Shown: positions 1,790 through 54,207, counted from the stretch's first letter. The stretch: DNA of 64,000 nucleotides from a virus (IMGVR_UViG_3300017913_001781:32001-96000); one strand, 5' to 3'. Made by a program: numbers and translations. Notes: generated by a model from the letters alone, not told the origin.

Positions 1790-3064
1790 ATGTCAGATTT
1801 TGTATCCATAGATCAATTTAGAAAGGGTAGGTTGCATAATAGAATGCATCAAGATCCTACGTATCTTAGCTTTTTTCTATCATTTGATTGGTATAGCGAA
1901 GAGTCTCCTTTATTTTCAGGGGAAGCAGAACGTTATTTAAGAAATGTAATAGGAGATAATGATAGAGCTGATAAGCTTAAACGTTTTATAAAGATACTTA
2001 AAAAGCTAAATACAGAAATGCCATGGTTTTGGCAATCTATTTCAGGATTAGAAACTACTAAACAGTATAACAAAATGGAAGACCCGTTTAGGGGAGGAAC
2101 TGATAGCAAAATAACTATAACTTGTTTAGAATCAGTTGAATTACCAGTAACAGGCCTTATAGACTTATATAAACAAGCTGCTTATGATTTTTCAAGATGG
2201 GTTGAGGTTATACCTCACAATTTAAGAAGATTTAATATGTATGTTTATGTAAGTGAAGTTAGAGTTTTTAGAACCAATAAAGCTAGTCAGTTTGTAGCCA
2301 ATACAATTGATAGCACCGGTTTATTAGGTACTAAAGATGATGGTCAAGCAAGGGCTTCTAGCTCTATAGTTAATTCTTCATATAACGGTGATATCAGATC
2401 TGTTAAGCCTCACTTTGAAATAGGGCTAAGTCATTGTACATTTGATATTGAATCTACAAATGCGGTTTTTCAAGATTTAAGTAAAAGCCCAGATCAACCT
2501 ATTACGCCATCAATAAGCATTATGTACGAAGGCGTTCATGACCATAAAAGCTATTATGTTAATAGTATTCCAGATGGTAATGAAGATCCAACTAATGGTC
2601 AACTACTCGCACAGGGCGCTAAAGATGCTATAGTTAGTAATGAAGATCCAACTAATGGTCAACTACTCGCACAGGGCGTTAAAGATGCTATAGTTAGTTC
2701 TGTTGCAAATAAAGTAGAAGGAGCTTTACAAAATACACTAGATAACGTTAAGGGTAGATTATTGCTAGGTAATGTATATGGCTTAAATGCAGCTTCTACA
2801 GTTCAAGATGCTATTAGGGCGGGCAGTATAAATGGTATCGCTAATATAGCAAGTCAAATTGGAGCTGACTCCAGACCTCCAGCTTCTCCAGATATTCCGT
2901 CAAACGTATATCCAGATCCCACTCAATTAAAATATGGCCCAGCCGGTAGCATAACTCCCGGTAATATATATGGAGTAGAACCTGCAACTTCTAGCCGGGG
3001 AAAGGATCCTTCGGTTTCTAGAATTCCAAAAGATTTAGGCAACGCAATTGAAAGAAGAGTATGA
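1790..3064 (+). CDS. Putative tail tube-like / tube initiator protein
   Basis: 424 aa; 'WFWQSISGLE...ITITCLES' is tube-fold-like; structural context; preceded by AATATATA. Confidence 0.4.
   Translation: MSDFVSIDQFRKGRLHNRMHQDPTYLSFFLSFDWYSEESPLFSGEAERYLRNVIGDNDRADKLKRFIKILKKLNTEMPWFWQSISGLETTKQYNKMEDPFRGGTDSKITITCLESVELPVTGLIDLYKQAAYDFSRWVEVIPHNLRRFNMYVYVSEVRVFRTNKASQFVANTIDSTGLLGTKDDGQARASSSIVNSSYNGDIRSVKPHFEIGLSHCTFDIESTNAVFQDLSKSPDQPITPSISIMYEGVHDHKSYYVNSIPDGNEDPTNGQLLAQGAKDAIVSNEDPTNGQLLAQGVKDAIVSSVANKVEGALQNTLDNVKGRLLLGNVYGLNAASTVQDAIRAGSINGIANIASQIGADSRPPASPDIPSNVYPDPTQLKYGPAGSITPGNIYGVEPATSSRGKDPSVSRIPKDLGNAIERRV
2577..2698 (+). repeat. Near-perfect 60-bp in-frame tandem duplication (NEDPTNGQLLAQG[A/V]KDAIVS x2)
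   Basis: Lines 2581 and 2641 are identical except gct/gtt. Confidence 0.95.
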
Positions 3065-3756
3065 AACAAGCTGAGCTTATAAATGATAACATTAGAGATA
3101 CACATTGGCTAGGAGAAGTAGTGGATAATCAGGATCCATTATCAAATGGTCGATGTAAAGTCAAAGTATTTGGTAAATTTGATACTATTCCGGTTGAAGC
3201 TATTCCATGGGCTTCGCCTATGAATAGAATGACGCCCGGTCATCATGTAGTACCAAGAGTAGGTGATATTGTTGGTATTAGATTTGATAATGGAGATATT
3301 TACCACCCCGAATACCTGTTTCAGGTCAATCAAAATACAGACTTAAAGGAAGAAGTACTTCAGAACAGCGAAACGCCATATGACGTTATATCTTTGGTCT
3401 ATGACGCTCAAAGAAAAGTAAGAATTTATTGGTCTCTAGAAGATGGTTTAGTCATGACTACCGGAGAGTCTCAAACGGCTCAGCCCATGATTAGATTCTC
3501 TCCAGAAGGTCAAATATTTCTTAACTCTAATGAGATATACATTGCTACCGATGGAACTAATACTGATGAACCCGCCGTTAAAGGTAAAACTTTAGCAGAT
3601 TTATTAGCTGAGATTATAACTCAGTTTAACGGCCATACTCATCCGACCGGTGTTGGCCCTTCTGGTCCTCCTCTACCTCCTCAATTACCGGCTATGATTA
3701 ATTTGCAAACGCAGATAAATAGTAATGCAGGCCCTGGTTTTATCCAGCAAAAATGA
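3061..3756 (+). CDS. Baseplate central spike, gp5/gpV-like OB-fold protein without lysozyme domain
   Basis: 'GEVVDNQDPLSNGRCKVKVFG...PWA...VPRVGDIVGIRF' gp5 OB-fold; C-terminal 'HTHPTGVGPSGPP' spike tip. Confidence 0.85.
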   Translation: MKQAELINDNIRDTHWLGEVVDNQDPLSNGRCKVKVFGKFDTIPVEAIPWASPMNRMTPGHHVVPRVGDIVGIRFDNGDIYHPEYLFQVNQNTDLKEEVLQNSETPYDVISLVYDAQRKVRIYWSLEDGLVMTTGESQTAQPMIRFSPEGQIFLNSNEIYIATDGTNTDEPAVKGKTLADLLAEIITQFNGHTHPTGVGPSGPPLPPQLPAMINLQTQINSNAGPGFIQQK

Positions 3757-5278: not shown

Positions 5279-5286
5279 GATATATA
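5279..5286 (+). promoter_or_regulatory. Putative late promoter GATATATA (upstream of the S1-like gene)
   Basis: RATATATA recurs at 1778, 2963, 6635, 14478, 20850, 28598, 34272, 35390, 39820, 43611 and 58688. Confidence 0.65.
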
Positions 5287-5315
5287 ATATGTTACACCTT
5301 TAATATAAAAAATAA

Positions 5316-6614
5316 ATGTCACAAAAAAAATCAAGGCCTAGAATCAATAAAAAGGCCATCGAAGAGGTTGAAGTAACTCAACCGGAGTCAACGACTCAAC
5401 AAGAACAAACAGAAGTAAAAATCGAAAGCGAAAGAGACCGATGGACTCTTGACAGCGGCGAATTTGATTGGGACGGCTATGCTGCTGATTGCCCAAAAAC
5501 TCTTAGAAAATCTAATCCACATGTAAAAACTCAAGGAAATGATAAGGTATTTTCTAGAGAGTCGTATGCTCAAGAGTTTTATGATATTCTAACTAACCGA
5601 GAAAAAGAATCTGAATTTATTCCTAAATTAAAAGTTGGAGTTATTTATGAGGGTAAGGTATTTGGTATTAATGAAACGCACGCTACTGTCGATGTAAACT
5701 ATCGCCAACTTGTCTTTGTTAAACTTTCTAAAGAAGATCCTCAATATAGAGACGTTAGACCCGGAGAAGAAGTATCAGTTCTTATAACCGAAGGTACCAA
5801 CGACGACGAAAGGGGTAATATCATAGGAACTATATCGGGCGGTATGCGCCAACGTATATTTATGGATCTAAGAGAAGGTATAGACTCAGCTGATACTGCT
5901 TGGACTGGTGTTGTTAAAGAAATGATTTCTGCTGGAGGATATGTCGTTAATGTACAAGGTGTAGATTGCTTTATGCCAGGTTCTCTTGCAGGTATTAACA
6001 AATTACACGATTTTGAATCTATCTTGGGTCAAGAGCTTTATGTCGTTCCTGTTTCATTCTCACAGGACAGAGGTACAATTGTTGTTTCGCACAGAAAGTA
6101 TTTACAGGCTATGATTCCTGTTGAAATTTCAAAGCTTCGTGAGAATATTACTGACAGAATTACAGGCACTGTTACCGGTACTGCGAAGTACGGTGTCTTC
6201 TGTGAGTTTAACACTTGCTTAACGGGTATGATTCATGTTAACGACTTAGATGCAGAAACACTTAAGAGACATAAGTCACAAAGTATTAAACCGGGAGAAG
6301 AAATTGAGTTCTTAGTTAAAGATATTGTATCTAATACTAAAATTACGTTGACTCAAAAGACGCTTGAGGAAACTAATCCATGGATTAATATACTTGAAAG
6401 ATATAAGGTTCCTAGTGTAGTTGATGCAAAGGTTAAAGCCGTTAAAGATTATGGAATTTTTGTAACTCTTGAAGAAGGAGTTGTCGGTTTACTTCATATT
6501 AGTGAAGTCGGAGAAGATCTAATCAAAGTGTTTAAGAACGGTGATAATATTACAGTTCAGGTAACCAGAATTGATCCTGAAACTAGAAAGGTGTTCTTGA
6601 AGTTACCATCATAA
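5316..6614 (+). CDS. rpsA: Ribosomal protein S1-like protein (about four S1/OB domains)
   Basis: S1 repeats: 'GGYVVNVQGVDCFMPGSL', 'GTVTGTAKYGVFCEF..GMIHVND', 'AKVKAVKDYGIFVTLEEGVVGLLHISEV..ITVQVTRIDPETRKVFL'; linker 'IVVSHRKYL'; 'NPW' motif. Confidence 0.85.
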   Translation: MSQKKSRPRINKKAIEEVEVTQPESTTQQEQTEVKIESERDRWTLDSGEFDWDGYAADCPKTLRKSNPHVKTQGNDKVFSRESYAQEFYDILTNREKESEFIPKLKVGVIYEGKVFGINETHATVDVNYRQLVFVKLSKEDPQYRDVRPGEEVSVLITEGTNDDERGNIIGTISGGMRQRIFMDLREGIDSADTAWTGVVKEMISAGGYVVNVQGVDCFMPGSLAGINKLHDFESILGQELYVVPVSFSQDRGTIVVSHRKYLQAMIPVEISKLRENITDRITGTVTGTAKYGVFCEFNTCLTGMIHVNDLDAETLKRHKSQSIKPGEEIEFLVKDIVSNTKITLTQKTLEETNPWINILERYKVPSVVDAKVKAVKDYGIFVTLEEGVVGLLHISEVGEDLIKVFKNGDNITVQVTRIDPETRKVFLKLPS

Positions 6615-6667
6615 TATGATGTCATAGTTAGTCTGATATATACCATAACAAAGATATATCGGTCTAG

Positions 6668-7981
6668 ATGAACAAACTTTATAAAAATTCTAATAGAGAG
6701 GAGATACTTAATGCTTCGTTATGCGGAGTAGAGTTTGAGTTTTATTCCAAATTGGGCCTAAAAGAGACTACCAAGCAATTGGAGGATCTTTTAGGCCGCT
6801 CTATTAGTATAGAAGATAAGGCACACTCTGATTTTGAACCAACTGATAAAGAGTTCAAAATTGAACCTGATATGTCGGGCGGTAAAGGACTAATGGAGCT
6901 CGTTACTGGAGCTATGCCTTATAGAAACGCCAGAATTATGATGATTAAGGTGTTAGGTTGGATTAGACAAAATGGTTATACAACCGAAAGGTCGGGCATT
7001 CACCTTAACTTATCATTTGATAAAGACTATTTAGAAGATAAAAATATGATATCTAAGATGAACACTCTTAAGTTTATCTTGGACTTTAACGAAAAACAGG
7101 TTTACAACCTATTTCCTGATAGAGAAAATTCAGTTTATGCTAAAAGTATAAAATGGGTTATGCCAAAGGTTGACGCGTTCTACTATGATTCTGTTAATAC
7201 TTCTATTCATAATTACGATTTCCCCAATACTAAGTACTATGGCATTAACTTTGAAAAGAAGTTAAAGAATTATTTAGAGTTTAGATATTTGGGTGGAAAG
7301 AATTATGAACAAAGGCAAGATGATATTTTCTATCTTTGGGAATCATTTGTTATGGCTATTTGGAAATCTTGTAATAATTCTAATTTTACAGAAGAAAATA
7401 AATTAGAGCTTCGTAGAATTTTACATAAAAACGAGCCTGTTGCATTATCTTTAAGAGACTTTAGAAACGTAAATAAGAATTGGCCTAAGATAGAAATTTT
7501 AGTAGACCTCAACGATCATGGTGAGACCATAGATATGTATTGGGATCGTATGAAGCATAGGGTTATGGATCTAATAACCAAGGGTGGTATGACAGAGGGG
7601 ATAGTTAACTACGATAGCGATATTTCTCATGTTCAAATTAAAGATGGTAAGTTTCCAACTTGTTTTCAACTTGAAGGTTATGACTTCGTCAATTGCGAAA
7701 TTAGAGGCAATGTAGAAAAAAGTGACTTGTTTGATTGTAAAGTTGAAGGGTCTATGTTAGTAAGATGTAATTTATATCAAGGTACAGAAGTTAAGGAGTC
7801 TAAGATAGAGTCTTGTTTTGTACACGGTAGCTGCACCATTGTTAATAGTTTTGTCTTTGGTAGAGACGGTATATTTAAAGGTAAAATGAAAGGTGGCATA
7901 TTTAGAGAAGGAATGATAACTAAAGATTCTAGGTTTGAAGATGACGTAGAAGTTGTAGTTACTAAAAAAATAAAATCATAA
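6668..7981 (+). CDS. Putative amidoligase (COOH-NH2 ligase) with C-terminal beta-helix-like repeats
   Basis: 'GVEFEF', 'EPDMSGG..MELVTG', 'GIHLNLS', 'KYYGINF', 'YLEFRYLGG' match amidoligase_2 motifs; Cys-containing short repeats at the C-terminus. Confidence 0.75.
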   Translation: MNKLYKNSNREEILNASLCGVEFEFYSKLGLKETTKQLEDLLGRSISIEDKAHSDFEPTDKEFKIEPDMSGGKGLMELVTGAMPYRNARIMMIKVLGWIRQNGYTTERSGIHLNLSFDKDYLEDKNMISKMNTLKFILDFNEKQVYNLFPDRENSVYAKSIKWVMPKVDAFYYDSVNTSIHNYDFPNTKYYGINFEKKLKNYLEFRYLGGKNYEQRQDDIFYLWESFVMAIWKSCNNSNFTEENKLELRRILHKNEPVALSLRDFRNVNKNWPKIEILVDLNDHGETIDMYWDRMKHRVMDLITKGGMTEGIVNYDSDISHVQIKDGKFPTCFQLEGYDFVNCEIRGNVEKSDLFDCKVEGSMLVRCNLYQGTEVKESKIESCFVHGSCTIVNSFVFGRDGIFKGKMKGGIFREGMITKDSRFEDDVEVVVTKKIKS

Positions 7982-7982
7982 G

Positions 7983-8825
7983 ATGAGTAAAATCAGAAGC
8001 GGCAACGATAGTGGCTTAAATACTCCTAAAAACTTTGGTGAAGATTGTCAAGATCTATTTTTAGATGAAATAGCCGATGAGCTTACAGGAGCATGTATGA
8101 TTCCTGTTAACCTTCCTAAGAAGGAGGTTTTAAACATTATAAAAAGAGCGGTTAAGTGGTTCTATAAGAATTACGAATACTCTGTTAAAGAAAACTATTA
8201 TCACATTCCTAATAGCGTATTTAGTACTGACTATTTTAAATCTCATAGGGCTTTACATTTACCACAAGCCACTGGCGATGGTTCTGGTATGGTATTCTCT
8301 GTTTATGGCTTATATGACTTAGCGAGCGGTTGGAATCAGCCAGGTGGGGGCTTAGATTTAAGATTCGAAAGCGGATCTGACTTTGCGTTAGAAAGAATGT
8401 TGTTTAGAAACGTGTACGACGGCGACGGAGCTGCTAGAGGCGCAGAGGAGTTACAGTATTACGTAATTAACCAATCCATGGTGGATCTATCTAGGCAGAT
8501 CATGGAGAACCCGATTTCGTTTCATTTCTCGCAATTGACAGGTGAGCTTAAGTTTATGGGTGATACACCCAAGGGAGATGTCATACTTGAAGTTTATGAG
8601 ACTATTCCTAATTGTGCACTCTACTCCGATGAGATATTCTTTAGGTATGTTTCGGCTAAAGTTAAAATATCATTAGGTTCTAAATTAGGCGTTTTTAAAT
8701 TTGCACTGCCGGGTAATGTAGAATTTGATTATTCGGAAATAAAGTCTATGGGTGAAGAAGAACTTTCAACAGTAATAGAAGAAATAAAAGGAGACGAAGG
8801 CGTTGATTGGATGATGCATTCATAA
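7983..8825 (+). CDS. Neck protein, T4 gp13-like
   Basis: 'IPVNLPKKEVLNIIKRAVKWFY' and 'LGVFKFALPGNVEFD..I...GEEEL' resemble gp13 N- and C-termini. Confidence 0.7.
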   Translation: MSKIRSGNDSGLNTPKNFGEDCQDLFLDEIADELTGACMIPVNLPKKEVLNIIKRAVKWFYKNYEYSVKENYYHIPNSVFSTDYFKSHRALHLPQATGDGSGMVFSVYGLYDLASGWNQPGGGLDLRFESGSDFALERMLFRNVYDGDGAARGAEELQYYVINQSMVDLSRQIMENPISFHFSQLTGELKFMGDTPKGDVILEVYETIPNCALYSDEIFFRYVSAKVKISLGSKLGVFKFALPGNVEFDYSEIKSMGEEELSTVIEEIKGDEGVDWMMHS

Positions 8826-8853
8826 GCTAAACAAAAAGTTGAATAGATACTAG

Positions 8854-9210
8854 ATGGAACTCTATATTAAGACAATTGGTGACCCTAACTTTGACTCGTT
8901 TAAGGTACAAAGTAATAGCGAGCTAGCACAGCTTATGACTCAAATAGAGACCATACTTTTTACAAACAAACGAGAGGTTTTAGGAAAACCTCAATTTGGA
9001 TGCAACCTTGAAGATTTAGTCTATTCTCTTAATTATAACAATAATCAGATCAAAGAAACTATAGATGAGCAAATTGCAATGTTTTGTCCTCTTGCCCAAA
9101 AATACAATGTATCAGCTGAAGTCTCTTTTGTAAAAGGTACAGCAAGAGACATAGCTTACATAGATATAACTATAGATTCTAAATACCTATTACAGGTCTA
9201 TATAAATTAA
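8854..9210 (+). CDS. Baseplate wedge protein, gp25-like
   Basis: 'IETILFTNKREVLGKPQFGCNLEDLVY' GPW/gp25 signature; precedes the gp6-like gene. Confidence 0.85.
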   Translation: MELYIKTIGDPNFDSFKVQSNSELAQLMTQIETILFTNKREVLGKPQFGCNLEDLVYSLNYNNNQIKETIDEQIAMFCPLAQKYNVSAEVSFVKGTARDIAYIDITIDSKYLLQVYIN

Positions 9211-9223
9211 ACATAACTTTATA

Positions 9224-11065
9224 ATGGCTGAATTTAAATTTTTAGATACAACAAGAGCTATAGCATCTGATATTGTAGCAGATGCTAGAACTTATATAGG
9301 TCGTATTTATGGTAGGGCGAACACTTTATTTACTACGGCGTCTCCATTTTCACAAATACTAGAGGTTATGTCTGAGATAGGAGAATTTTTAATGTTCTAT
9401 GTTGAAGATGCAACAGTAGAACAAAATATCTATACTGCACAACAGCCCGAATCAATCTATGGATTATCTAGACTCGCTGGTCATGATCCAACTAGAGGCT
9501 TTGCTGCTTTTGGAGAAATAACTTTTAGATGGGCAGCTGGTGTAGATTTAAGCAAGGTAATTGGAGACGCTATTAACATCCCTGCAAATACTAAAATAAA
9601 GTTCGACGCAAATGGATTAAGCTATATGCTTAGAACAAATAAAGATCAATTTAGAATAGAAAAAACCAACAATAGCACATTTACGTGTTCTATTATACAA
9701 GGAGAAATAGAGTCTCAAACCGTGACAGGAACTGGTGAAAAGCTACAGTCTTTTAATATCCAAACTGGAGGATTAACAGACCATAATTTAGTTTCAGTAT
9801 CGGTTAATGGAGAATTATGGACCAAGTTTAATTCTTTATATGAAATGTTGCCGTCTGATAAAGGTTATATCATTAAAACGGGTATCGGTGGAGGATTAGA
9901 CGTTTATTTTGGTAATGGTAACTTTGGTATGATGCCTGTTTCTGGTTCTTCTATTGAAATAGAATATATTAAACATGACGGAGTTAAGGGTAACTTAGAC
10001 GATGCTTCGGATTTAACATTTAAATGGGTCGATGAAGGATCAGATGCTCTTGGAAATTCGTATGACTTAAATAAATTTTTACAAGCTAACGTTACCTCAT
10101 CTCCTAAAATGGGCGGCGACAGAGAATCAACCGAATTTACCAAGTTAATAGCACCAATGGCATCTAAAAGTTTTGTCTTAGCTACTCCGGACCATTACGA
10201 GTATTTCTTAGGTAGATATGGTATTTTCTCTTACATCGATGCGTATAATACGGTTGATGACCAATATATTGATGATGATAACGTTATTTACATATTTGCA
10301 ATTCCAGATGTTAAAAGAAAATTGGCTAAAAACCTAGATTACTTTTCATTACCCATAAACGAAATGTTTTTTGATGCTAATGAATATAGCGCTATGGCTG
10401 GTGTTTTACAAGAATCCGGTCAGCAAATGGTTACCACAGAAGTTAAGTTTGTAGAGCCTAAAGCTAGATATTATTCTATGGATATTTCTGTTAGATATTT
10501 TGAAGGTTTTAGAAAAGAAGATATTTTTAACGACATAAGAGATGTTGTATCTAATTACCTATTAAATGTGACTAGAAGAGATAAATTGCCAAAGTCAGAT
10601 ATCATCTACATATTAGAAGAAGTCGAAGGCGTTGATGCTGTTAATGTCACGTTTGTTTCTGAAACAGAAGAGACTGCCAGAAGGCTAGGTTACTATGAGT
10701 CTATAACTACCAAGGTTGTACCTTCGCAACCCGTTGTCTTAGAGGATATCGGTAATGGTAAGCAAAAATTTGTTTTCTTTAAGAAAGTTCAAGAAGTTGA
10801 ATTGGTTAATATTGGTGCTAACGATCCTATTCCTGCTGATGTTGCAGGCTTAGACGAGTACGGTGATATTATTATGGAAAAAGAAGAGGTTGCTGTATTT
10901 AGAGGAGGTTGGTTAGATAGAGATAGCCAGCTTGTTAAAGATATTCCTTCTATTAATGAAGATGCTGCTTTAACTGTTACATTTGACGAGACGCCTGTAC
11001 CGAGGACGGTTTATACTAGACTTCAAGCAGGAGATAGAAAATCAATAGTTAGAAGATCATCATGA
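9224..11065 (+). CDS. Baseplate wedge protein, gp6/baseplate J-like
   Basis: 'EQNIYTAQQPESIYGLSRLAGH', 'VYFGNGNFGMMP', 'GGDREST', 'LATPDHYE'. Confidence 0.85.
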   Translation: MAEFKFLDTTRAIASDIVADARTYIGRIYGRANTLFTTASPFSQILEVMSEIGEFLMFYVEDATVEQNIYTAQQPESIYGLSRLAGHDPTRGFAAFGEITFRWAAGVDLSKVIGDAINIPANTKIKFDANGLSYMLRTNKDQFRIEKTNNSTFTCSIIQGEIESQTVTGTGEKLQSFNIQTGGLTDHNLVSVSVNGELWTKFNSLYEMLPSDKGYIIKTGIGGGLDVYFGNGNFGMMPVSGSSIEIEYIKHDGVKGNLDDASDLTFKWVDEGSDALGNSYDLNKFLQANVTSSPKMGGDRESTEFTKLIAPMASKSFVLATPDHYEYFLGRYGIFSYIDAYNTVDDQYIDDDNVIYIFAIPDVKRKLAKNLDYFSLPINEMFFDANEYSAMAGVLQESGQQMVTTEVKFVEPKARYYSMDISVRYFEGFRKEDIFNDIRDVVSNYLLNVTRRDKLPKSDIIYILEEVEGVDAVNVTFVSETEETARRLGYYESITTKVVPSQPVVLEDIGNGKQKFVFFKKVQEVELVNIGANDPIPADVAGLDEYGDIIMEKEEVAVFRGGWLDRDSQLVKDIPSINEDAALTVTFDETPVPRTVYTRLQAGDRKSIVRRSS

Positions 11066-11331: not shown

Positions 11332-14300
11332 TGTTTCAAAAGCTACGTTTTTTTAGAGGCACTGAGCATGATCTTAATTTAGTGCAAGATACCAATGGAG
11401 TTTACAAAGGTACTATTCATATGGATCCCGTTTCTACGGGTCTTTATGAGACTGTAAACCTGCTTGTGATGGAAGAAGTTGAGAAGGATAATCAAATTTG
11501 GTTAAATCATCCAACTTCAAACTTTCCTTTTGGGAGTACACTAAACTTTAGATGGCTTAATGACTTTGATACGTCAGATGATATTATCATGTACGGCGCT
11601 AAGCTAGATAAAGGTATTGTAAAAATAGATGTCAAAAAAGAACAAGGTTTTGATTTAATTGACATTATCGATAATGACTCATTAGAAACGTATTTCGACG
11701 TAAGCGTTGCTGCAGACGATGGCCTTAATTTTTGCTTAAATTATCCTAATGATGGTTTTCCAAACGACTGTGTATTTGCGCCCGAATTAACGCTAAAAAG
11801 GGGCTTTACATATGTTTTTGATCAAAGTGACGTATCTAATCAGCCATATATAATGGCTTTTTCAGAAACCCCAGATGGAGAAAATCCAGATGGATCTATT
11901 GCAAAAGCATACACGAATGGAGTAGAATATTCAGGAAATCCCGGTACAAATGGATTGTTAACCTTTAACGTACCGCTTGATGCACCTGACGCTCTTTACT
12001 ATTTTTCTCCAGGCGGAGTTATATTTAATGAGGCTTTAGGCAATATAATTAATATTGTTGATGCAGACATCGACATAGACGACGATGGCTTTAAAGAGGT
12101 CGAAGATTTGAATAATTCAGCGATCACTGTCAATATAGCCCTAATGTCTTTTGACGAAGGAAGACACCATCGTACACTTCAAATATACGAAAAAGATTCT
12201 ACATCTGAAACAATTGTTGCTGAAATTAAATTTTATGGAGAAGTAGAGGGTGAAGACGAAAGACTAAAAGTTATGTTGAATAACTTGGGTGCTAGATTAG
12301 AAGAAACAGACTTCTTATTGTTTAAGGACCATGACATTACTGAAATGGCACCTGACTTTATTCTCTTAAATCAAAAGAGAAAGGAGTTACTCCTAGAGTT
12401 ACATGATATTAAGCCATTTGTGGGAACTTATAAGGCAATACTAAATGCTATTGATTTCTTTGGCTATAACAATATTACGCTTAAAGAATATTGGATGAAT
12501 ATTGATGACTCAAGTGATCGATTTGGTAAACTAAAAGCTATTCCGGTTCCTAACTCTTCTACATATGGAGAGCTACAAAGAAAGATGATGTCAATTAAGG
12601 TACCTTCAAGTACTCTTAAGAAGACGAGTCGATTTAGCTTAGTGTACAAAATAAATGTACCTAACGGAGAGTTTGACTACTGGGATATTCCAGAAGTTGA
12701 TGAGGTGTTCGATTTTACGCCCGAAGAAGTTCTTATAAAGTTATACGGCCTGAAGGACAAGCTACAAAGAGAGTACTTGCCACTGAACGCTAAGATAGTT
12801 GATATTACCGGAGAAGGTGACTTTTTTGCTCAAAAAAGCATGAACTTTTGGAACAACCAAAACGGTATTGCCCTATTTACAGAAGGACATGACATTAAAT
12901 TTGATGTTCATCCAAAAGATAGAAACTTATATGTCGAAGATTTTGCCCTTGTCTTAAAGAACATATATGACGACGATGACACTACACTAGCTGATGACTA
13001 TAACGATCTATTAAATCTAGATTTTGATCAATATGGTGATCTAAGTGGAGATGTAAGAGATGCTAATGGAGAAGTTGTTACTCAAGGACAAAGATCGATA
13101 TTAAAGGATCAATACTTTGAATTTTATGAAAATTATTTTCAAGGTCCTTTAGATACATTTAACCAAGATATTCCAGTTGGATGTCCAATAACACTAGATG
13201 GCACTGAGACATTTACATATACGTGGGATGATGCTGAGTTTAATTGGAACGATGCAATGGATTCTAACCAAAACTTAGGTGTAACTTGGAAAGATTGGTG
13301 GAAGCGTTGGGTTTATGAAATAGAATGGGTAATTACTGGACCTAAAGATTATAACAATGCATTTAGAGGACCTATTGATGACTTTTTAGTTTTTCCATTA
13401 GCATTACCATATGAGGGTAAATATAGCGTTGAGATGAGAACGTATGACTTATTTGGTCATAGATCATATGAACACAGAGAAGATACTATCGATGTTAAAC
13501 TTAAAGATGTTGAAATCTACGGGCTATATAAGTGGATGGAGACAATGCAATGGAGAGATACTGATATCGATTGGAATTCTACCGGAGGCGTTTGGGCTAT
13601 GCCTCTAAATAACTCGACATATACTGAAGATATTTTATCTACCTTCTATTTGTCAATGGATCGAGCTAATTATTTACATGACGAGTCTCATAGTATTAAT
13701 ACGTCCATGGTTAAGAGATACTTGGACATTTATTCTGAAACCGGTTTTTCGGAAACGGCCGGCCCATATCAATGGGATAACTGTGAGTTTAGGTGGAATG
13801 ACGGTCAGCATAACTGGTGGGACGCTACAGTGGTCGGAATGGATCTAACATCCTCATTTAAGATACTTGGTCTATCAGCTAATGAAGTATTAATTATTGA
13901 ACATACTGATCCAAGCACGGGCGAGTCAAAGATTGGAACATTTACACCTACTGTTTCTCCAGCTAGTCCTAATTCTCTTGCAGATTGGCAACAATTGGCT
14001 GATGAATTAAATGCTTCAGAGGACGAGGTTATAAGTAAGTTTAATTATAACATTATATATGTGGACTATGATGGTGACGGCACTACTGATTCTACAGGAG
14101 AGTGGATACCAGTAGACGGAGATGAAGATGGTCAAACGGCAGATGGCGGAGGCCCAGCCGCAGATGACGTTGATGATATACCTCTTCAAAATATATTAGC
14201 TGCTAATATACTTGCAGTCGGTAAAAACTATTCAAGATACAATGATTTCGATAAAGTACTTGTTGTCGACGTCAATGGTCAAATATTAGACGGAAAAATA

Positions 14301-17185: not shown

Positions 17186-20100
17186 ACACAAATAACTCAC
17201 TTTCTACGATAATCAAGCAGTTTTTAGAGATTAACACAAATACTCTAAACGCTTTCGAACGTATTAACGAGGCTGTTATCTCTGATAGAGAAACAGTGCC
17301 TCTTGATATCTTAACTGAAGACGGAGGCACTAAGACGGTTTACGTTCCCGCATTTGGTTATATGAATCGCGAGTTAAAGAGGTTAGAGCAAAATATGAAG
17401 GCCCTTACCGGTCTATCAGATGGCACGGCTAAAGTTAGGCTGGCAGATGGATCTTATCAAAAGATACTTAAGTCTAGTTTAAAAACTCCAGCCGCAGATA
17501 TAGGCACTCTTAATAGACCTAACACGTTTGAAGTTAAGTCTAATTATTTCTTTGAGGATTTTTTAACTCCTTTATTAAAGGTTTCTTTTGATGTTAGTGG
17601 ACAAGTTCCAACAGATACTGAAAGAGTTTTAGTTAAGCGAGTTATTATCGACGGTTCATTTGATTTTGCAGCACAGTTTTTTGATGACAATTACTTAGGC
17701 GAAGATGACGTAGATCATAATCAACTAATGTCGGCTATAGCAGCTAACAACATTCCATTCTTTATGGATGAAGAGGTTAGAGATATGCCGTATAGAAATA
17801 CATTATATTATGGCAAGTTTGATGTAACATCTATAGATACTGTTCAAAAGACTATTATAGTTGAAGGAGAAGAAAAGAGAAAAACCATCAAGCTTTATAC
17901 ACTTGATAAGTTAACATACACTGACGCTGATAAAGATCTAAAAGACACAGAGTTTATGAAGGTCGGTGATGAGCTAATTGTCAACACTCAAAGAAGAAGC
18001 ACTAAATATAAGGTTAAGACCATCTACACCGAAACACGTCAAGTTGAGCTTGATATTGTAGAAGGGTTTGAGGCTATTAAAATAGGTGCAGACGTTTTAT
18101 CAATCTATAAAGCCAACGATACTCAAGTTAGTATTGATATAAATGTTGGATTCGACGATAGGTTCGTAGTTTTCTTTAAAGTTATAGATGCTAACTCTAA
18201 GATTGTAGCTGAAAATTGGTCACCAGGTGCAGCTCTTTACTCTAATAGTCTAACAATGACTAAAGAAGATGGAGAGGTTATTACACTAGCTGATTACTAT
18301 AAAGATAGTGTAGCTGATTTTGGTCAGTTTATTAAGGCGTTAAAAGACGATCCAATCCCTCCTTCAACATTAGGTGTTGCACCTGACGCACCAGAAGTTC
18401 TAGAAGAGAACTTTAAAGTTGTACAGATCAACAAGCATCTAACGGAGAACGACGCGGCCCTGAAGGTTAAGAAGCTTAATGCTGATAAAGTAAGTGCAGA
18501 TTCAACTATTAAAAAATTAGACGATACTATTGCTAAGAAAAGATCATTGATTTCTAGGAAAAAGTATAAGTCAACCATTGAAAGAGATAAAGATAAAAAT
18601 GAGTTGGTTTCATTGGTTAATGAAAGGGCATCGGAATCTAAGCTTTATGGATCTATCGTTTCTCAAATTCAATCAGCGGCTTCAGATGCACAATTAACTG
18701 CTATTGCGCCTAAATATAGAATTAGAGGATTTTGGGCTATTCCAGAACCTAAATTAGTTGCAGAAACTATACCACAAGAGGTTATCAAGTTTAAAATTCA
18801 ATATAGATACTTATCTACTTCTGGTAAAACTTCTGAGATTGCTCAAATTTCATTTGACGACAAGGGCAATAAGAGAACAGGAGTCTTTAGCAACTGGAAT
18901 GAAATAGAAACTCCAGTTAGAGCTCGTTTAAGAAACGAAGAAGGCAAGTTTTATTGGTCAAATAGTGCAGTAGAAGACGGGCAAGAGGTTAACTTTAATC
19001 AGCTTGATATTCCTATTAGTTCTGGAGAAGTTGTTGAGTTTAAAGTTAAGTCTATATCAGAGGCTGGATGGCCAAGCAACCCATTAGAGTCAGAGTGGTC
19101 TGACATTATTAGAGTAGTTTTCCCAGAAGGAGAATTGGATAATGTTAGTGTTGTTAATTTGGTTGAAGAAAATGCAAATGAGGTCGCAAGAGTTAAACTA
19201 CTTGAAGAATTAGAAGCAGCTGGCGTTTATGGCCACGTAGGAGATTCTTTTTCAGCTAACGAAAAGTATTTTGCCCATACAACTAATACTATAGCATCTG
19301 GTTTCTTATCACCTGAACAAAATCCGGTTTCTCTATTCGATAAGCTAACAGAAATGCAAAATAAAATTTCTGTACTTGAAGAAACTATAAGTAATATTAG
19401 AGGCGAATTGGCAGTGACTTTAGTTGCTGAAGACGGCACGACTACTGAGATAAACAGAAATACAAATAATAAGGTTTTTGCTGGATATTATGTAGATGAA
19501 GTTGCAGACTTAGCAATTAAAAAAGGACATATAGTTACTAAGACATTTAAGCTTCTTCTTAAGAATACAAGAGCTACTACATTAGAATTAGTTGCTAGAA
19601 TAACCGGCGATAGAGATTTACCTGCGTTTAAGTCAACTGATTCAGCGATAGACGGAGGATTTGGTTTTGATGCTTCAGGAACTATTGACAATAGGGTAAT
19701 AGACGATGTTTATTATAGAACCGAGGGTAAGTATGATATGAGTCCTATCCAATATCAATCTTTGGGAGGAGAAACCGAAACTGAGTTTTCTAGACAAGCG
19801 CCATATCAATCTATTCAAAGAAGAGGTCAATTTGTCTACAACAGATTTATGGACGTAGCTAATGAAAAATCGTTATATATGAATCAGTCTGTTATTGCAT
19901 CGGAAAGTTCAGGTAATTTTTCAGATTATGAATATCCATTAGGTTATGCTGACTATACATCGGGGACTAGTTCTATTTTGCCGCTTGACGGCGATGCTTC
20001 TAGTAATGCATATATTTGGGCAGGAACTTTTGGTAGAAATAGACTTGTAAGTGCTATAGACGATGGCGAGACACCTACTAATCCAGATGCCGTAGCTTTA

Positions 20101-20894: not shown

Positions 20895-23800
20895 ATGGCA
20901 GCTGATGCAATATTTTTTATCAAGAGTATACAACTTTACTATAAAGAACACGATGGTTTAAGTTTATTCCAGGGAGATGCAGATCAACTTCCTACGTCAG
21001 TTGGTCCATTAACCTTTTACTACACGGTTGAGGCAGATCAAGATATACAGCCAGGTGATAATAACTGTGGTATAAATTATTTTACTAGACCAGGCTTCTT
21101 TCAACATCCGGGCGGTGTTTTAGAATTACCTTCGCCTCTTGATGCTGATCTTAGCACAGGCGGTCCAGGTTGTTCAAATCCCAGATGGAGTATAGCTCAA
21201 ATTGCGCCGCTAGGTATAAAGCTTTATTCTGATAATCAACTTCAAAATGAAGCAGCTCCCGGTAAGTACAGCGCTAATCCCTTTCCTGTAACTAATTTTG
21301 ATCCTGCCGATAATGAAGACTCTATAGTTTATAGCTATGATCCTCCGGCTAGCGTAACTCTACATAACACAAATTATATTTGGGAGACATACTCGTTTAC
21401 TAACTTTGAGGGAGACGAAGTTAATGCGCTACAAACTAGATTAATTAGTCCTGTAAATCCAGTATTAGTAAACTTTACAGGTACTGCTGGGCAAGTTTAT
21501 CGTAAGGTCCTTGGAGTTCAAGGAGATTCTCCTTGTAATTTTTCTACAGGGGCCATACCTGCCTTTAATGTAAGTTATTTCCCAACAGAAGAAGTACCGG
21601 CCGGTGCTACGTTAGCTGAAATAGCAGCAGGCGGTATACCTTTAATGGATTCTAATGGAGATATATTCACATTTGGTTACTTCTCCGATCAACAATTTCC
21701 TAGTACCTCTAATGATGTAAATATTTATAAAGCGGACGGCTTGATAAATGACTATATTGTTAATTGGCAAGCGTCAGTATGTACTCAAGTTGTTGCACCT
21801 AACGAAACTGTTAGAGAATTTACTGTAGATTTTGCAAATGAAGTAGAAGCTGTAGAATTTAATTCTAATCAATTTGGAGATTTTGTAGAAAATAGTTTAT
21901 TTTGTTCAAATGCACAACCTTTAAGGGTATTTTATACAAATAACAATACAGAGTATGATACGTTTTTTGATTTAGTAGTAGCTAATGAACCAATATATGT
22001 TACTCCTAATACTTTACCTAGTAATATTGTTCCTGAATATTGGCAACTTATTAATGCGCCTGAAGGTTCATATGGTGTAACTCTTAATAGTTATTTTTTC
22101 TATATTTTAGAAGAAATAGACAATAATTTATCAGCGGGGTTTGACGGACCTGGATGGTATCGTATTTACCCAGGCTCTAATAATATAACTTTTTATGTGC
22201 CAGCGGGACTAGGTGCAGCCGATTCAAGCGGATTTAATTGTGCTTTACCTGGCAGAGATTCTAACAATATCAAAACTATAACTCTTAATTATTCTAATAG
22301 TCAACAAGGTTATTGTGAAATTAATAGTAGTAATTTATCTAATAATCAAGTTACATGTCAATACTACAGCATAAATGGACAAGATCTGACATTAAATGAA
22401 ATTATACAAAATCAAATTTATCTATACAAAGATTCTTTAGAATATGCGGCTTACTATCAAATAGATGATCTACTATTTACATCTGGCTATTTTGGAGATG
22501 AATTTGGTTTTTATTACAATTTTAATTCAAATATTGCTGAAGAAGGCGGTAACCCATGGAGAGGTAGAGAGTTTATAACTATAAGCGATAGTTATAGTTC
22601 TCCGTTTATGTGTACTGGTAATGGAACAGAAATTAGATCTTTTGATGATTTAATTTATGTTTCCGGCATTTGGACTCAAATTTACCCCGATTATGATTTT
22701 TCAGATGAATTTTGTTATAGACAAAAGCAATCGTATTATGTGGTATATTATAGGACACATACTGAATCACCAGAGTTTACTTTAGATGAAATTGTTCAGC
22801 GAGATATACCATTATATAGAACTCCTACAGAACTTACTAATGGTCAATCTTTAAAAACTGGAGCATATTCTAGCGATACTGATTATTACTATAAATGGGT
22901 TGCAAACGAAGATGAAACTGGAGGACATTGGATGGGTTTAAATTCTAGTCAAACAGAATCTCAAGCATTTATAACTAATTCTATTCAATGTAATTTACAA
23001 CCAGTTCCCAATTACTTTGACACTTTAAATGACAACACATTAACCGAAAACTCAGGGGCTGATTATCTATTAGCATTTTATGTTTTTAGCTCTTGTATTC
23101 CAGTTAATGGCCAATATACACACTACTTATTATTCGGAGAACATACTAATTTACCTGATGACAATACAAGTTATATGTCGGAATTTACCGATGTAATAGG
23201 CTTTAATTCTGCGTTTTATAGTTTAGGATCTACTGATTTAAATTATGGCTGTAAGAAATATGTAGGTAAGATATTTGCGTCTTCTCCATCACAGGCCGAA
23301 GAGTTAATGTCATCGCAATTAGATTATTTCCAGGGAGATATTCAATTTGTTAGTCCAAGCGCAATAGGTTTATTTAGCGAAGAGTTAATACTATGGTATC
23401 CAAATGGATGCAATGATTGTCTTAATCAATTAGATTTTCCCGGACTTCCGGAGAGGTTAGATAAATTTGATGACGGCGGTCAAATTGAAGACTTAGCCCC
23501 TAGATTTGGTTTAGAACAAAACTATAATCTGCATAATAATTCCAAGCCACTTCTTAGAACTAACCCTAGACTAACAGGTAATATTAAGTTAGTTACTGAT
23601 TCTAGAGGCGAAATATACTTAGAATCAATAAATGCAAATAAAGATCTTTCGGATTCTCGTTATAAAAGATATGGAGTAAGTTCAGAAAGCGACTATTCAT
23701 ATGATGTTTCTAGATTTTTTAATGATAATAAAACGCCATATGACATGGTTTATGAGACAAAGAGAAGAGCGTCTGATCTTTCAGTCTTAGAGTCATATGA

Positions 23801-26800
23801 TTTGCAATTTGAAGAAGATTATCAATATGGTACTAGGTTTAACAATTCTAAGTTATATGATGAAAACTTTAGAATATTTGCTCCTATCCAAATAGACACG
23901 AATATACCTAAAACGTTTGTTATTTATAGAGTTAATTCTCCTAAACCAAATGTAAACTATGGGGATTTAGGTGCTGATAAGCAAGATAGAATTAAATCTG
24001 TGCTAGCTAATGCAACTATAATTAAGACGTTTGATTTAAGTGAATCTTCTAAATTAGGTAAATATATTAGACGTCATGTTTATAATGAATTTTTTCAAGA
24101 TAGCCAACTAACAGTTTCCTTTGAGAAGAATGAACAGACATTCTTTAAGGGAATAGATTTAGTAAAAGGAGGATTCTCAAGTAAAGGCGAATTTATCTAC
24201 AAGGATTTTGTAGCTACTGATAAACCTTTGATAGAAGCTAACGACTTTATTACAGATGGATTTAAGAGAAACAGAATAGTATCTTCTAATATTTTAAATC
24301 TAGAATTTATGTTTGATGATGAGGAAGCTAGTGAATATTCTGTAAGTCGTTATTTTGGATTATTTGTAGATGAAATACCTTCAGGTAAAGGTAAGATTCA
24401 AAGAGTTAATTCAGGCTTAATTAAGTTTAAAGACTTAACATCTTTTATGCATTACAATGATAGTGGTTCTAGTTCTTCGTTGATTGATGGTAATACATTT
24501 GCTATACCTTCTAGTCAAATGATGAGAGATATTCCTGTTTTAGGTTACGTAAAGTGCGATACACACTACCATAATATTAAAAACGGAAGCGAGTGGAGTG
24601 CTGAAAATTATACGTTAAAAATTAATGATAACGGGGATGATATTAATAGGTTTACAGGCATTAAAGATACTTTAACCACCGTAGAACTAGAAGAAAACGC
24701 GGGAGTAGGATATGATTTTGTTAAACTATCTGTTGTTGATATACCATTTAATGGGGATTCTATATCGGTAATAGAAAATAAAAGACAATCATATTGCATA
24801 AGAGTAATTAACCACGTCCCTGGTTCCAATATGACGATAACTGCATCGTATCCAACTCAAACTACTGTGCAAATAAGTTCTGGTGCTACCAAAGAGGAGG
24901 CTTTAGATAATTTAGAAAATCAGTTATCTATATCTGGTCTATCGGTAGAAAGAGAAGGCGATGTTATTTTCGTAAAAGAAGTGCATGCTTATTTTAATGA
25001 CATTAATTTAGAAGTTTCTTCATCTAACCCAGCTCAAGTTATTAAAGTTGAGAAGAACTATACTAGTTCTAATTTACTTGAAAATTTAATTACGGCTAAT
25101 TCAGCAATTGACAAAGGAAGATGTACTGATAGAGAATTTTCTAATCAAGGTAATATTAAAGATGTAGTTGTAGCATTGGCCGGCGCGATATCTAAACAAG
25201 AAGGCATCCAAACTATTGTCAATAATAAAGACATATATGTTTACTCAAATAGAAATATAGGTTACGCTAGATATCAGCACGCTATATTAGTAAGTAAGTC
25301 TAATGTAGTTGATTTTGTTTCTTCTTTAAATACAGACGAGTCTAATGATTTAAAAATTGCACAAGCCGTTTTAAACGATTGGAACGCATACTATTTAATA
25401 GGAGGCCATTCTGACGGTAGATCTGTACTAATATCTAACGATTCAATCGGCGGTTTAAATATAGGAGATTACATAGATAGCAAAAAAACTGCAGGTTATA
25501 ATAAAGTTTTAGACATAGTAGAAAACCTAGAAGACGTTACTTCTAATTATAGTAAAGTTGTATTAACCACTAGACATGATTTAGGTAAAGGAGAGTTTAA
25601 AGTATTTAGAGAGTTTGAAGCAGAAATAGGATTATTTTCAGCCTATGATATTTATGATATGAATTTTGATTTTTATGATACTTCTAATTCAGATCTTAAA
25701 GAACTTAAGTATGAGACTTATCAAAATACAAACTATACTCCGGCGAATCAAGCCATATTTAATGCTGAAGAGGGCCAAGAGGAAGAAGCTTTAGACGGCA
25801 TAATAGATCCAGATTATATTAAAGATCCTGCACTTTTCTTTGCAGGTTTAAATCCTATTCTATATCCTGAAACACCAGAAGAGCAAGTCATCTCTAAAAT
25901 AGATTCAGAATATGACCGATTACAAGAAAATGGTCTAAAAGAATTTGCAGTTGAATCTAGAGTGGTTCCAAATATTAACAAGTGGGTTTTAAAAGATGCT
26001 AAGACAGTTAGAGACAATCCATATTATTTAAATGTAAATGAGGCTTTTGGTAGAACCAATTTCTCACCCGATATTACAGTAGAAGGTAAAGATCCAAAGT
26101 CATTTACACACGAATGGTTCTATATTGTTAATAAGCCCGACTATCTAAAACATTTTATGTTGAATGATACTTTTAGTTATATTAATTATATCTCAGGATT
26201 TGAACTAACCAAAGACATGTTTAAATCAATAGAAGAAGATTATTTTACCAACTTTATGGTAAGTGATGGATTTGATGTTAGCATAGATCCTGACGAACAG
26301 CAAATTTACGTTGTTACTATTTCTGAGGATTCAAATAATGGCTATGTTGTTTACATAAATGGAGAAGCTGGTTCTACGTTAAATATGATTACAAATAATA
26401 CGTACTATTTTGATCTAAGTAATGTAGATCCTGCTCTATTTTCTATCGAAGACTCAGTGGGAATGTATCAACAAGAAAATATAGGAGGTATAGAATTTGG
26501 AGTTTATACACCTGATACATATGGATTTTTTGAGTTTACATATGGTTCATCTCAGGGTGGCAATATTTCAGTATCTAATCAAGACTTTAATAAATTTGAA
26601 GCTTTTGTAAAAACTAATAGAAACATTAAATATTCTATAGGTAATGGAGGAAATGATAGATCTTTTGCTTCTACTATATTTAAGGGTTTGAAATTTGAAT
26701 TTAAGAATAGAAAGGAGTTTGATAAGATTAAGCCATCTGAATTTTTAAAGGATGGAACTTTTAATGATTATAAGTTTTCTACGGTAGTTGATTATAAAAC

Positions 26801-35304: not shown

Positions 35305-35401
35305 AGCCTATTCTTTCCCTGAAACCTAAAACCATTTATTGTATGCTAGTTGCCACGTTATGTTTCATGAAGAAACAAAAAGAAAAAGAGATATATAAGA
35401 T

Positions 35402-53742: not shown

Positions 53743-54207
53743 ATGGCAAACTCAGATAATAAATGTGCAGATCTAGAAGTACAAGACTTCTACACTGACG
53801 TAAAAGACACGCTCGGCCTTGTATATAACAAACAGATCGAGCTACAAAGCAGACTCGGATTTAACTTCGAGAATTGGACCCTTAAAGAAATTGCAGATTT
53901 CTGGTGTGTTAACAAACATGCTATGAGCGATGAACTTAACGAAATGTTCGATGCTCTTGGTGGAGTTAATGATGGTATTGCTTCAGCAGCATGGAAATAC
54001 TGGAAAAAAGACAATGCTAAAGCGGCTACTATGACAGTAGCTGACCTTTCTAAAGAAGATCGCCTCGAACTATTTTACGAGTGGATCGATGGTCTTCACT
54101 TCTACATGAATTTTGCTATTTCAATTGGCATGACAGCAGAAGATATAGTAAACCTCTACATGGCTAAGAACGCAGAGAATCACGATCGCCAAAACCGAGG
54201 ATACTAA
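53743..54207 (+). CDS. Dimeric all-alpha dUTPase/dCTPase (T4 gp56-like)
   Basis: 'DELNEM', 'WKYWK', 'EWIDGLHF', 'YMAKNAENHDRQNRGY'. Confidence 0.85.
   Translation: MANSDNKCADLEVQDFYTDVKDTLGLVYNKQIELQSRLGFNFENWTLKEIADFWCVNKHAMSDELNEMFDALGGVNDGIASAAWKYWKKDNAKAATMTVADLSKEDRLELFYEWIDGLHFYMNFAISIGMTAEDIVNLYMAKNAENHDRQNRGY

Follow-up and report, generated by a model that had tools for sequence, protein, structure and literature searches.

The window analyzed here, a 64,000-nucleotide stretch of viral DNA (IMGVR_UViG_3300017913_001781:32001-96000, i.e., positions 32001-96000 of a 122,950-bp IMG/VR virus record), encodes a 432-amino acid (aa) S1-like protein, a phage paralog of the ribosomal protein bS1. 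The gene is preceded by the octamer GATATATA, which resembles a promoter, and by a short, nearly invariant A/U-rich leader (Table 1). The record is 41% complete according to CheckV, has a G+C content of 35.8% and carries 112 of its 115 open reading frames (ORFs) on one strand; given this completeness at 123 kb, the genome size is estimated at ~300 kb.

A Pfam search detects the S1 domain (PF00575) in this protein with an E-value of 1.1e-25 and three stretches over the threshold. The NCBIfam rpsA model, TIGR00717, is matched at profile positions 11-341 of 516 by phage residues 99-429, and residues 105-430 are colinear with residues 18-346 of Escherichia coli bS1 (E = 1e-47). Lower NCBIfam matches include GSP13/CvfD, PNPase and RNase R, and a protein atlas returns generic S1 clusters and nothing further. 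An AlphaFold2 model built from an alignment of 79 relatives, with a mean predicted local distance difference test score (pLDDT) of 74, contains four OB domains (residues 110-172, 196-258, 282-346 and 367-429) and two helices upstream of them (52-58 and 85-93); residues 1-37 are disordered. The best-conserved stretch of the protein, C218-F233, lies inside domain 2, and domains 5 and 6 are missing throughout the phage family. The original prediction of a truncated S1 homolog, with about four S1 domains behind an extension of ~100 aa, is borne out by the Pfam and TIGR00717 matches, the bS1 alignment and the model: the gene is a genuine phage-encoded S1 homolog, colinear with domains 1-4 of bS1 only.

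Beyond the basic tip and the variable linker at the very N-terminus, residues 45-95 are strongly conserved across the family, in particular G48, F50, W52, C59, N67, Y84, A85, Q86, Y89 and D90 (invariance, here and below, was judged over 79 family sequences). The FDWDGY motif (family consensus FMWDAY) looks similar to the Bacteroidia bS1 helix that contacts uS8; a Bacteroidales-type S1 encoded on a faecal contig has FDWDAF at its N-terminus. In Flavobacterium johnsoniae bS1, residues 11-20, FLANFNWHNF, contact uS8 (PMC13000457), and in the 2026 cryo-electron microscopy structure (PMC13000457; PDB 9ZCD) this segment makes up the leading helix of a helix-loop-helix that binds uS8 and uS2. The second conserved motif, ESYAQEFYDIL, in which Y84, A85, Q86, Y89 and D90 show little or no variation, resembles by eye the N-terminal helix ESFAQLFEESL of E. 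coli bS1, where F5 and F9 stack on F32 of uS2 and are essential for ribosome binding (PMC4288201). The same helix motif is present in the S1 proteins of Acinetobacter, of the clostridial type, and of the phages PhiMa05 and Lak-C1. Within the OB domains, D126 and R130, both invariant, fall at the alignment positions of E. coli D39 and K43, the domain-1 loop contacts to the uS2 zinc pocket; Y209 and F219, likewise invariant, fall at those of F120 and F130 in the OB2 pocket (PMC10123108). A PDB search with domain 1 and the N-terminus alone yields no match. Judging from these alignments, the N-terminal region appears to be a conserved anchor with motifs like those of the two-helix anchor of bS1, and putative counterparts of the 30S-docking features (ESYAQEFYD, D126/R130, FxWDxY) are present.

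Phage residues 40-175, supplied with the family alignment, were co-folded with uS2 and uS8 of F. johnsoniae. The score is 0.62, compared to 0.06 for the best of three controls; 58 of 80 solved complexes and 2 of 110 mismatched pairs attain this mark. The runs share at least 74% of the contacts, and the partner pLDDT is at least 71. In the predicted complex, residues 75-92 lie on uS2 residues 29-45, domain 1 residues 126 and 129-132 lie on uS2 residues 204-209, and residues 43, 50, 52 and 55-58 lie on uS8. The structure prediction with uS2 that had been suggested initially, extended here to uS8, thus passes its controls and, as far as a model can, supports binding of the phage anchor and domain 1 to the 30S subunit.

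The S1-like protein has 1683 homologs in a large protein collection. The best 120 of these are 53-100% identical to it, 424-447 aa long (with one of 377 aa) and for the most part aligned full-length, and many of the homologs listed come from Tara and other seawater samples. In IMG/VR, 419 viral contigs carry a relative, and the family appears to be under purifying selection. A tblastn search retrieves the S1-like genes of the LR7565xx and Lak genomes, with 30-37% identity over 68-87% of the query. The S1-like protein and the DNA polymerase agree on the wider kin: LR756500-504, LR745206 and Lak Prevotella megaphages come first, and Chryseobacterium phages next. A Megablast search with the first 20 kb against phage records finds no match, and a scan of bacterial genomes returns a single partial gammaproteobacterial S1. 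In a maximum-likelihood tree that takes in eight bacterial S1 sequences, the phage S1-like proteins, including those of LR756500-504, LR745206 and Lak-C1, form one clade with 100/100 support, which suggests an old, vertically inherited phage gene. The proposed phylogenetic comparison with bS1 is answered in part: the phage clade is distinct from the eight bacterial sequences sampled. S1-like genes have been described in huge phages and linked with missing Shine-Dalgarno (SD) sites (Al-Shayeb et al. 2020; PMC7162821), so that the earlier statement that S1 homologs are known from large phages is correct, and the tree places the present gene in the same lineage.

The octamer GATATATA lies 37 nucleotides (nt) before the ATG of the S1-like gene. 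In 79 of 79 related viral contigs, it is found 34-39 nt before the start of this gene, though the sequence upstream of the motif has diverged. In the window, the octamer is no more frequent than expected by chance (8 copies vs. 6.1 +/- 2.6 expected), so that only strand, placement and conservation are informative. In the 123-kb record, 24 of 24 copies are on the coding strand, 19 of the 24 fall in the 7.6% of the sequence that is non-coding, and most are located 12-45 nt before a start codon. The motif precedes the S1-like gene, its downstream neighbor, two fiber-like genes, the head protease gene and a terminase-adjacent gene, and it is found before none of the polymerase, ribonucleotide reductase, helicase and UvsX genes. 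No position around the octamer is conserved across the copies, and sigma-70-type promoters and intrinsic terminators near the S1-like gene do not exceed chance expectation. The best reading is that GATATATA is a phage promoter for genes expressed at the time of morphogenesis. Of the late promoter attributed to the gene in the original prediction, a conserved promoter-like element shared with morphogenesis genes stands, and the late timing is what we infer from it. G+C-rich hairpins followed by a T-run occur directly before GATATATA at record positions 10605-10641, 18975-19007 and 22830-22867, and these pairs look like terminator-promoter junctions between transcription units. Most late genes have A-rich leaders of 25-45 nt. 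In five genes, the octamer is located 12-13 nt before the ATG (record positions 3225, 19000, 22860, 23584 and 67390, the latter corresponding to window position 35390), which implies that their mRNAs are leaderless or nearly so if GATATATA is a -10-type element.

The leader between the octamer and the ATG is unusually conserved. Over the 30 nt after GATATATA, the mean frequency of the top base is 0.89, compared to 0.58 in the leader of the neighboring gene and 0.61 upstream of the motif, as measured on 38 unique sequences, the encoded proteins of which share only ~55% identity. The leader sequence occurs once in the window. Upstream of the LR7565xx and Lak S1-like genes, neither GATATATA nor this leader was found. 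A small upstream ORF (ATG TTA CAC CTT TAA) was rejected because the ATG is missing in several relatives, and a 7-bp hairpin was rejected because A-to-C variants of the 3' arm are uncompensated. The mRNA of E. coli rpsA has an autoregulated leader without an SD site, a case also cited in PMC13157829. By analogy, the phage leader may be a single-stranded recognition site, i.e., a translational enhancer or an autoregulatory operator.

An SD core at positions -20 to -4 is found in 3 of 112 genes, compared to 10% of random positions, and A is enriched in the leaders at -3 (54%), -12 (59%) and -13 (52%), which bears out that nearly all phage genes lack SD motifs and shows that their leaders are A-rich. 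The same adenine signature is given for F. johnsoniae in the part of PMC13000457 that cites PMC6847099. In Bacteroidota, too, mRNAs lack SD sites and depend on adenines in the upstream region, and initiation is stimulated by bS1 (PMC7797042, PMC13000457). Among the other phage genes is one for a bS21 homolog, with the best solved matches in Porphyromonas gingivalis and F. johnsoniae (Table 1), which has a tyrosine at the position of F. johnsoniae Tyr54, the residue that stacks on the sequestered anti-SD tail (PMC7797042). The bS21 gene adjoins a DnaJ-like gene (locus L027 424-1248), and a copy of GATATATA is found at record position 12775, ~320 nt upstream of it. Of the huge relatives with an S1-like gene, LR745206 and LR756501 also encode bS21. 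The type of bS21, the absence of SD sites together with the adenine signature, and the kinship with Lak and Chryseobacterium phages make it likely that the host belongs to Bacteroidota, most likely to a marine member of this phylum. Given that Bacteroidota themselves have no SD sites, the missing SD sites appear to be a host trait, and missing SD sites and A-rich leaders therefore would not discriminate phage from host mRNAs. Accordingly, the suggestion that the S1-like protein uses such leaders to bias ribosomes towards phage messages is not supported, the likely host phylum and the phage having leaders of the same kind.

The S1-like gene is located among baseplate genes, as was noticed at the outset, with a gp5-like hub gene upstream and gp13-like, gp25 and gp6-like genes downstream. 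In the best 80 loci among the relatives, the order of genes does not change: downstream of S1 come a gene for a 437-aa protein (80 of 80) and gp13-like (79 of 80), gp25 (77 of 80) and gp6-like (75 of 80) genes, and the gp5-like hub gene is found upstream in 70 of 80. LR756500 has the same gene order around S1. More distant relatives have no recognizable homologs of these baseplate genes next to the S1-like gene. The Lak-C1 copy has a gene for a Thg1-like tRNA-His guanylyltransferase behind it (locus L011 11668-12480), which places it in a translation-related neighborhood. Given these distant genomes, the position in the baseplate cluster appears to be a matter of genome layout in the marine clade that is not tied to function. 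The conserved 437-aa gene (window 6668-7981) shows a weak match to phrog_33777 only and has a conserved GATATATA of its own. Elsewhere in the record, T4-like replication genes and genes for the portal, head protease, major head protein and terminase are present. The family-B DNA polymerase is split into N-terminal and C-terminal genes (window 54207-55634 and 59819-61024; phrog_262 positions 92-500 and 497-840), with two ribonucleotide reductase subunit genes between the halves. A giant ORF of 2588 aa (window 20895-28661) located behind GATATATA (20850) is followed by a gene for a 719-aa protein with collagen-like tail-fiber matches, and a 482-aa protein (record 17417-18865) matches phrog_850, 'RNA-binding protein', with an E-value of 1e-155 and represents a second RNA-handling gene of this phage.

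Table 1. Features of the S1-like locus and related genes (feature; position in the window unless stated otherwise; strand; basis or remark)
GATATATA octamer, promoter-like (probably late), no conserved -35-like partner	5279..5286	+	placement, conservation
Nearly invariant A/U-rich S1 leader, core TTACAC-YY-TTAAT-A-TAAAAA	5287..5315	+	~27 nt between GATATATA and ATG
Gene for the 432-aa S1-like protein (bS1 paralog, domains 1-4)	5316..6614	+	ORF call, homology, model
Basic conserved N-terminal tip, residues 1-10 (R7, R9 invariant)	5316..5345	+	family alignment; disordered in model
Variable acidic/polar linker, residues 11-44	5346..5447	+	sequence and length not conserved in family; pLDDT <50
FDWDGY motif, residues 50-55, like the uS8-contacting helix of Bacteroidia bS1	5463..5480	+	F50, W52 invariant
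Helix ESYAQEFYDIL, residues 82-92, like the uS2-docking helix of bS1	5559..5591	+	model helix 85-93
S1 domain 1, degenerate ribosome-binding type, residues ~105-172	5628..5831	+	E. coli bS1 alignment, model
S1 domain 2, residues 196-258	5901..6089	+	family conservation, model
S1 domain 3, canonical RNA-binding type, residues 282-346	6159..6353	+	Pfam, bS1 alignment, model
S1 domain 4, canonical RNA-binding type, residues 367-429, best Pfam match	6414..6602	+	Pfam, bS1 alignment, model
GATATATA of the downstream 437-aa gene	6635..6642	+	motif conserved in 80 related loci, its leader not
gp5-like baseplate hub OB protein	3061..3756	+	PF04717, phrog_430
gp13-like, gp25-like and gp6-like neck and baseplate genes (block)	7983..11065	+	downstream of S1 in 75-79 of 80 related loci
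gp13-like protein	7983-8825	+	
gp25	8854-9210	+	
gp6-like wedge protein	9224-11065	+	
bS21 homolog	record 13148-13306, within record 13097-13336 (locus L027 1450-1689), outside the window		best solved matches P. gingivalis 9I5V, F. johnsoniae 7JIL

Taken together, these observations are best compatible with the S1-like protein being a ribosome-binding bS1 paralog that, at the late stage of infection, supplements or displaces the loosely bound host bS1 on the Bacteroidota 30S subunit, a hypothesis to which we assign a probability of about 60%. Under this scenario, the protein would be made late from the phage-specific GATATATA promoter and would occupy the usual place of bS1 on the 30S subunit of the host through the helix-loop-helix, with FDWDGY facing uS8 and ESYAQEFYD facing uS2, and through domains 1 and 2, whereas domains 3 and 4 would catch A-rich leaders that have no SD site and pass them into the mRNA channel. 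Because the binding of host bS1 is weak and reversible, the phage protein could add to it or take its place at the peak of late protein synthesis; replacement of host S1 by the phage protein, as originally proposed, is no more than plausible. Bacteroidota ribosomes ignore SD sites and depend on bS1 and bS21, and the phage would supply its own bS21 of the Bacteroidota type. The leader of the S1 mRNA is a probable binding site that would set the translation of the gene itself, either as an enhancer or through autoregulation. A more elaborate and rather doubtful version pairs the S1-like protein with the phage bS21: late in infection, the two together would rebuild the mRNA-exit/platform region of Bacteroidota ribosomes, yielding a phage-specialized 30S subunit, with the S1 output set by self-binding to the leader.

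Several observations weigh against this hypothesis. The likeness of the anchor to bS1 appears to be confined to the motif level: a HMMER search with the N-terminal 105 residues against 1.84 billion representatives yields 26 matches, all of them members or fragments of the phage family, with no bacterial S1; a PDB search with the N-terminal profile yields no S1 match within E <= 10; and a BLAST comparison of the N-terminus with the Bacteroidales-type S1 recovers just the six residues FDWD[GA][YF], with an E-value of 0.025. The protein scores 151-177 bits with the curated bS1 models (TIGR00717 and NF004952), far below the equivalog cut-offs of 524-577, and the phage clade is set apart from the eight sampled bacterial S1 proteins by a branch of ~4.8 changes per site, which would allow for an altered function. 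The ribosomal proteins in the co-fold are F. johnsoniae stand-ins for those of the host, and, since S1-uS2 complexes have been solved, its passing score may reflect likeness to these. Furthermore, bS21 was not found in LR756500 or Lak-C1, i.e., in two of the four huge relatives with S1, so that the S1/S21 pairing is not universal. Finally, no feature was found that would enable the S1-like protein to tell phage from host mRNAs, and selective bias towards phage mRNAs exerted by this protein is unproven.

An alternative, which appears unlikely, is that the protein functions off the ribosome, as an RNA chaperone, a protector of late mRNAs or a cofactor of a phage RNA enzyme. Host S1 serves the T4 RegB nuclease and the Q-beta replicase in this manner. 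The S1 domain is common in non-ribosomal RNA-binding proteins (PMC6375957), the phage protein is highly diverged from bacterial bS1, and the invariant leader might serve as an RNA target that has nothing to do with ribosomes. However, non-ribosomal S1 proteins have neither the degenerate domain 1-domain 2 pair nor the N-terminal docking helix, whereas here this pair is retained and holds the best-conserved stretch of the protein, the uS2-contact residues are invariant, and the uS2/uS8 co-fold outscores its controls. The same docking features, combined with the family-wide absence of domains 5 and 6, would also be expected of a competitive blocker or remodeler of the bS1 site that has no full bS1 function and shuts down host translation or a bS1-dependent response, such as trans-translation or an S1-dependent defense, with the phage messages needing less S1. 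The five genes with GATATATA 12-13 nt before the ATG, suggestive of very short or absent leaders, would fit this possibility, which we nevertheless regard as quite improbable: domains 3 and 4 keep canonical, strongly conserved RNA-binding motifs that a simple blocker would not need, and the leaders of most late genes are host-like, A-rich and 25-45 nt long.

A place in the virion, as a baseplate or tail component or as injected cargo that acts on RNA at the onset of infection, is suggested by the location of the gene between the hub and the neck/wedge genes, which is kept in 70-80 of the 80 loci and in LR756500, and by GATATATA being common to S1 and the morphogenesis genes. A structural role in the baseplate was the outcome under which the original prediction was to be abandoned; a homology check points the other way, given that PHROGs contains no family for the protein and no tail or baseplate family matches it, all of the matches being S1 proteins. 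Moreover, more distant relatives have no recognizable adjoining homologs of these baseplate genes, the Lak-C1 gene being beside that for tRNA-His guanylyltransferase, and the S1-like protein carries no F-x-x-F..E leader. A virion protein is thus the most improbable of the readings considered here, and a role on the 30S subunit remains the preferred one.

The idea that phages encode S1-like proteins, and the link of these genes to missing SD sites, are already in the literature (PMC7162821) and are not new. Added here are the analysis of the anchor, the link to the Bacteroidota-type bS21 of the phage, the fixed promoter motif and the invariant leader; the fixed spacing of GATATATA at the S1-like gene and the near-invariance of the leader are new. 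How bS1 and bS21 select start sites independently of SD in Bacteroidota is an open question, and in the structure of PMC13000457, bS1 beyond residue 40 and the adenines at -12/-13 are not visible. Because it keeps a putative docking anchor and only two RNA-binding domains, the phage protein can be considered a natural minimal S1, and such a compact, conserved and abundant S1 (419 viral contigs) would be of use for structure determination and for testing the recruitment of mRNAs that have no SD site. If the S1-like protein and the phage bS21 indeed alter ribosome specificity, they would provide a clear example of virus-built specialized ribosomes in a major group of marine bacteria.

The closest known systems are the S1-like proteins of huge phages and Lak phages (PMC7162821), which belong to the same lineage, come from SD-poor genomes and have a proposed role in initiation. 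The Lak-C1 protein shares the KVFS-x-ESYAQELYD helix with the phage protein described here. Unlike these proteins, members of the marine clade have a fixed length of ~430 aa, a basic tip and a variable linker, and their gene keeps a constant place in the baseplate block; unlike in the huge relatives, the gene in this clade is equipped with the GATATATA promoter motif and the invariant leader. A separate case is the bS1 homolog of the Microcystis phage PhiMa05/MaAM05 (PMC13157829), which is likewise phage-encoded; in contrast to the present protein, it branches among bacterial S1 proteins, and its gene adjoins ispH, rplU and rpmA. Given this placement in the tree, it represents a separate capture.

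With E. coli bS1 (rpsA), the phage protein shares colinear domains 1-4, the equivalents of D39 and K43, and the OB2 aromatic pocket, and it has an N-terminal helix motif of similar appearance; it differs in having four domains rather than six and ~80 extra residues before the helix, in which the aromatic residues are Y84, F88 and Y89, compared to F5 and F9 in E. coli. In both cases, the S1 gene is located behind a conserved A/U-rich leader with no SD site; however, the phage leader is only ~27 nt long, has no supported secondary structure and is a candidate binding site only. The bS1 of F. johnsoniae, like the phage protein, has an aromatic helix, F-x-W-x-x-F/Y, and another helix between it and domain 1; in the phage protein, the loop that joins the two helices is longer by ~15-20 residues and conserved (C59...NPH.KT...). 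This bS1 consists of 591 residues, compared to 432 aa in the phage, and the likeness is undetected by profile search. In F. johnsoniae, bS21 is a functional platform partner (PMC13000457), and the phage has a bS21 of its own. With respect to transcription, GATATATA matches the T4-type late promoter in being a lone A/T-rich octamer, with no -35 element, upstream of morphogenesis genes; the T4-type consensus, TATAAATA, differs from it and is not enriched (8 copies on the plus strand and 9 on the minus strand, with only 2 non-coding). Compared with these systems, the phage gene described here is a well-characterized additional member of the already known S1-like genes rather than a new type of system.

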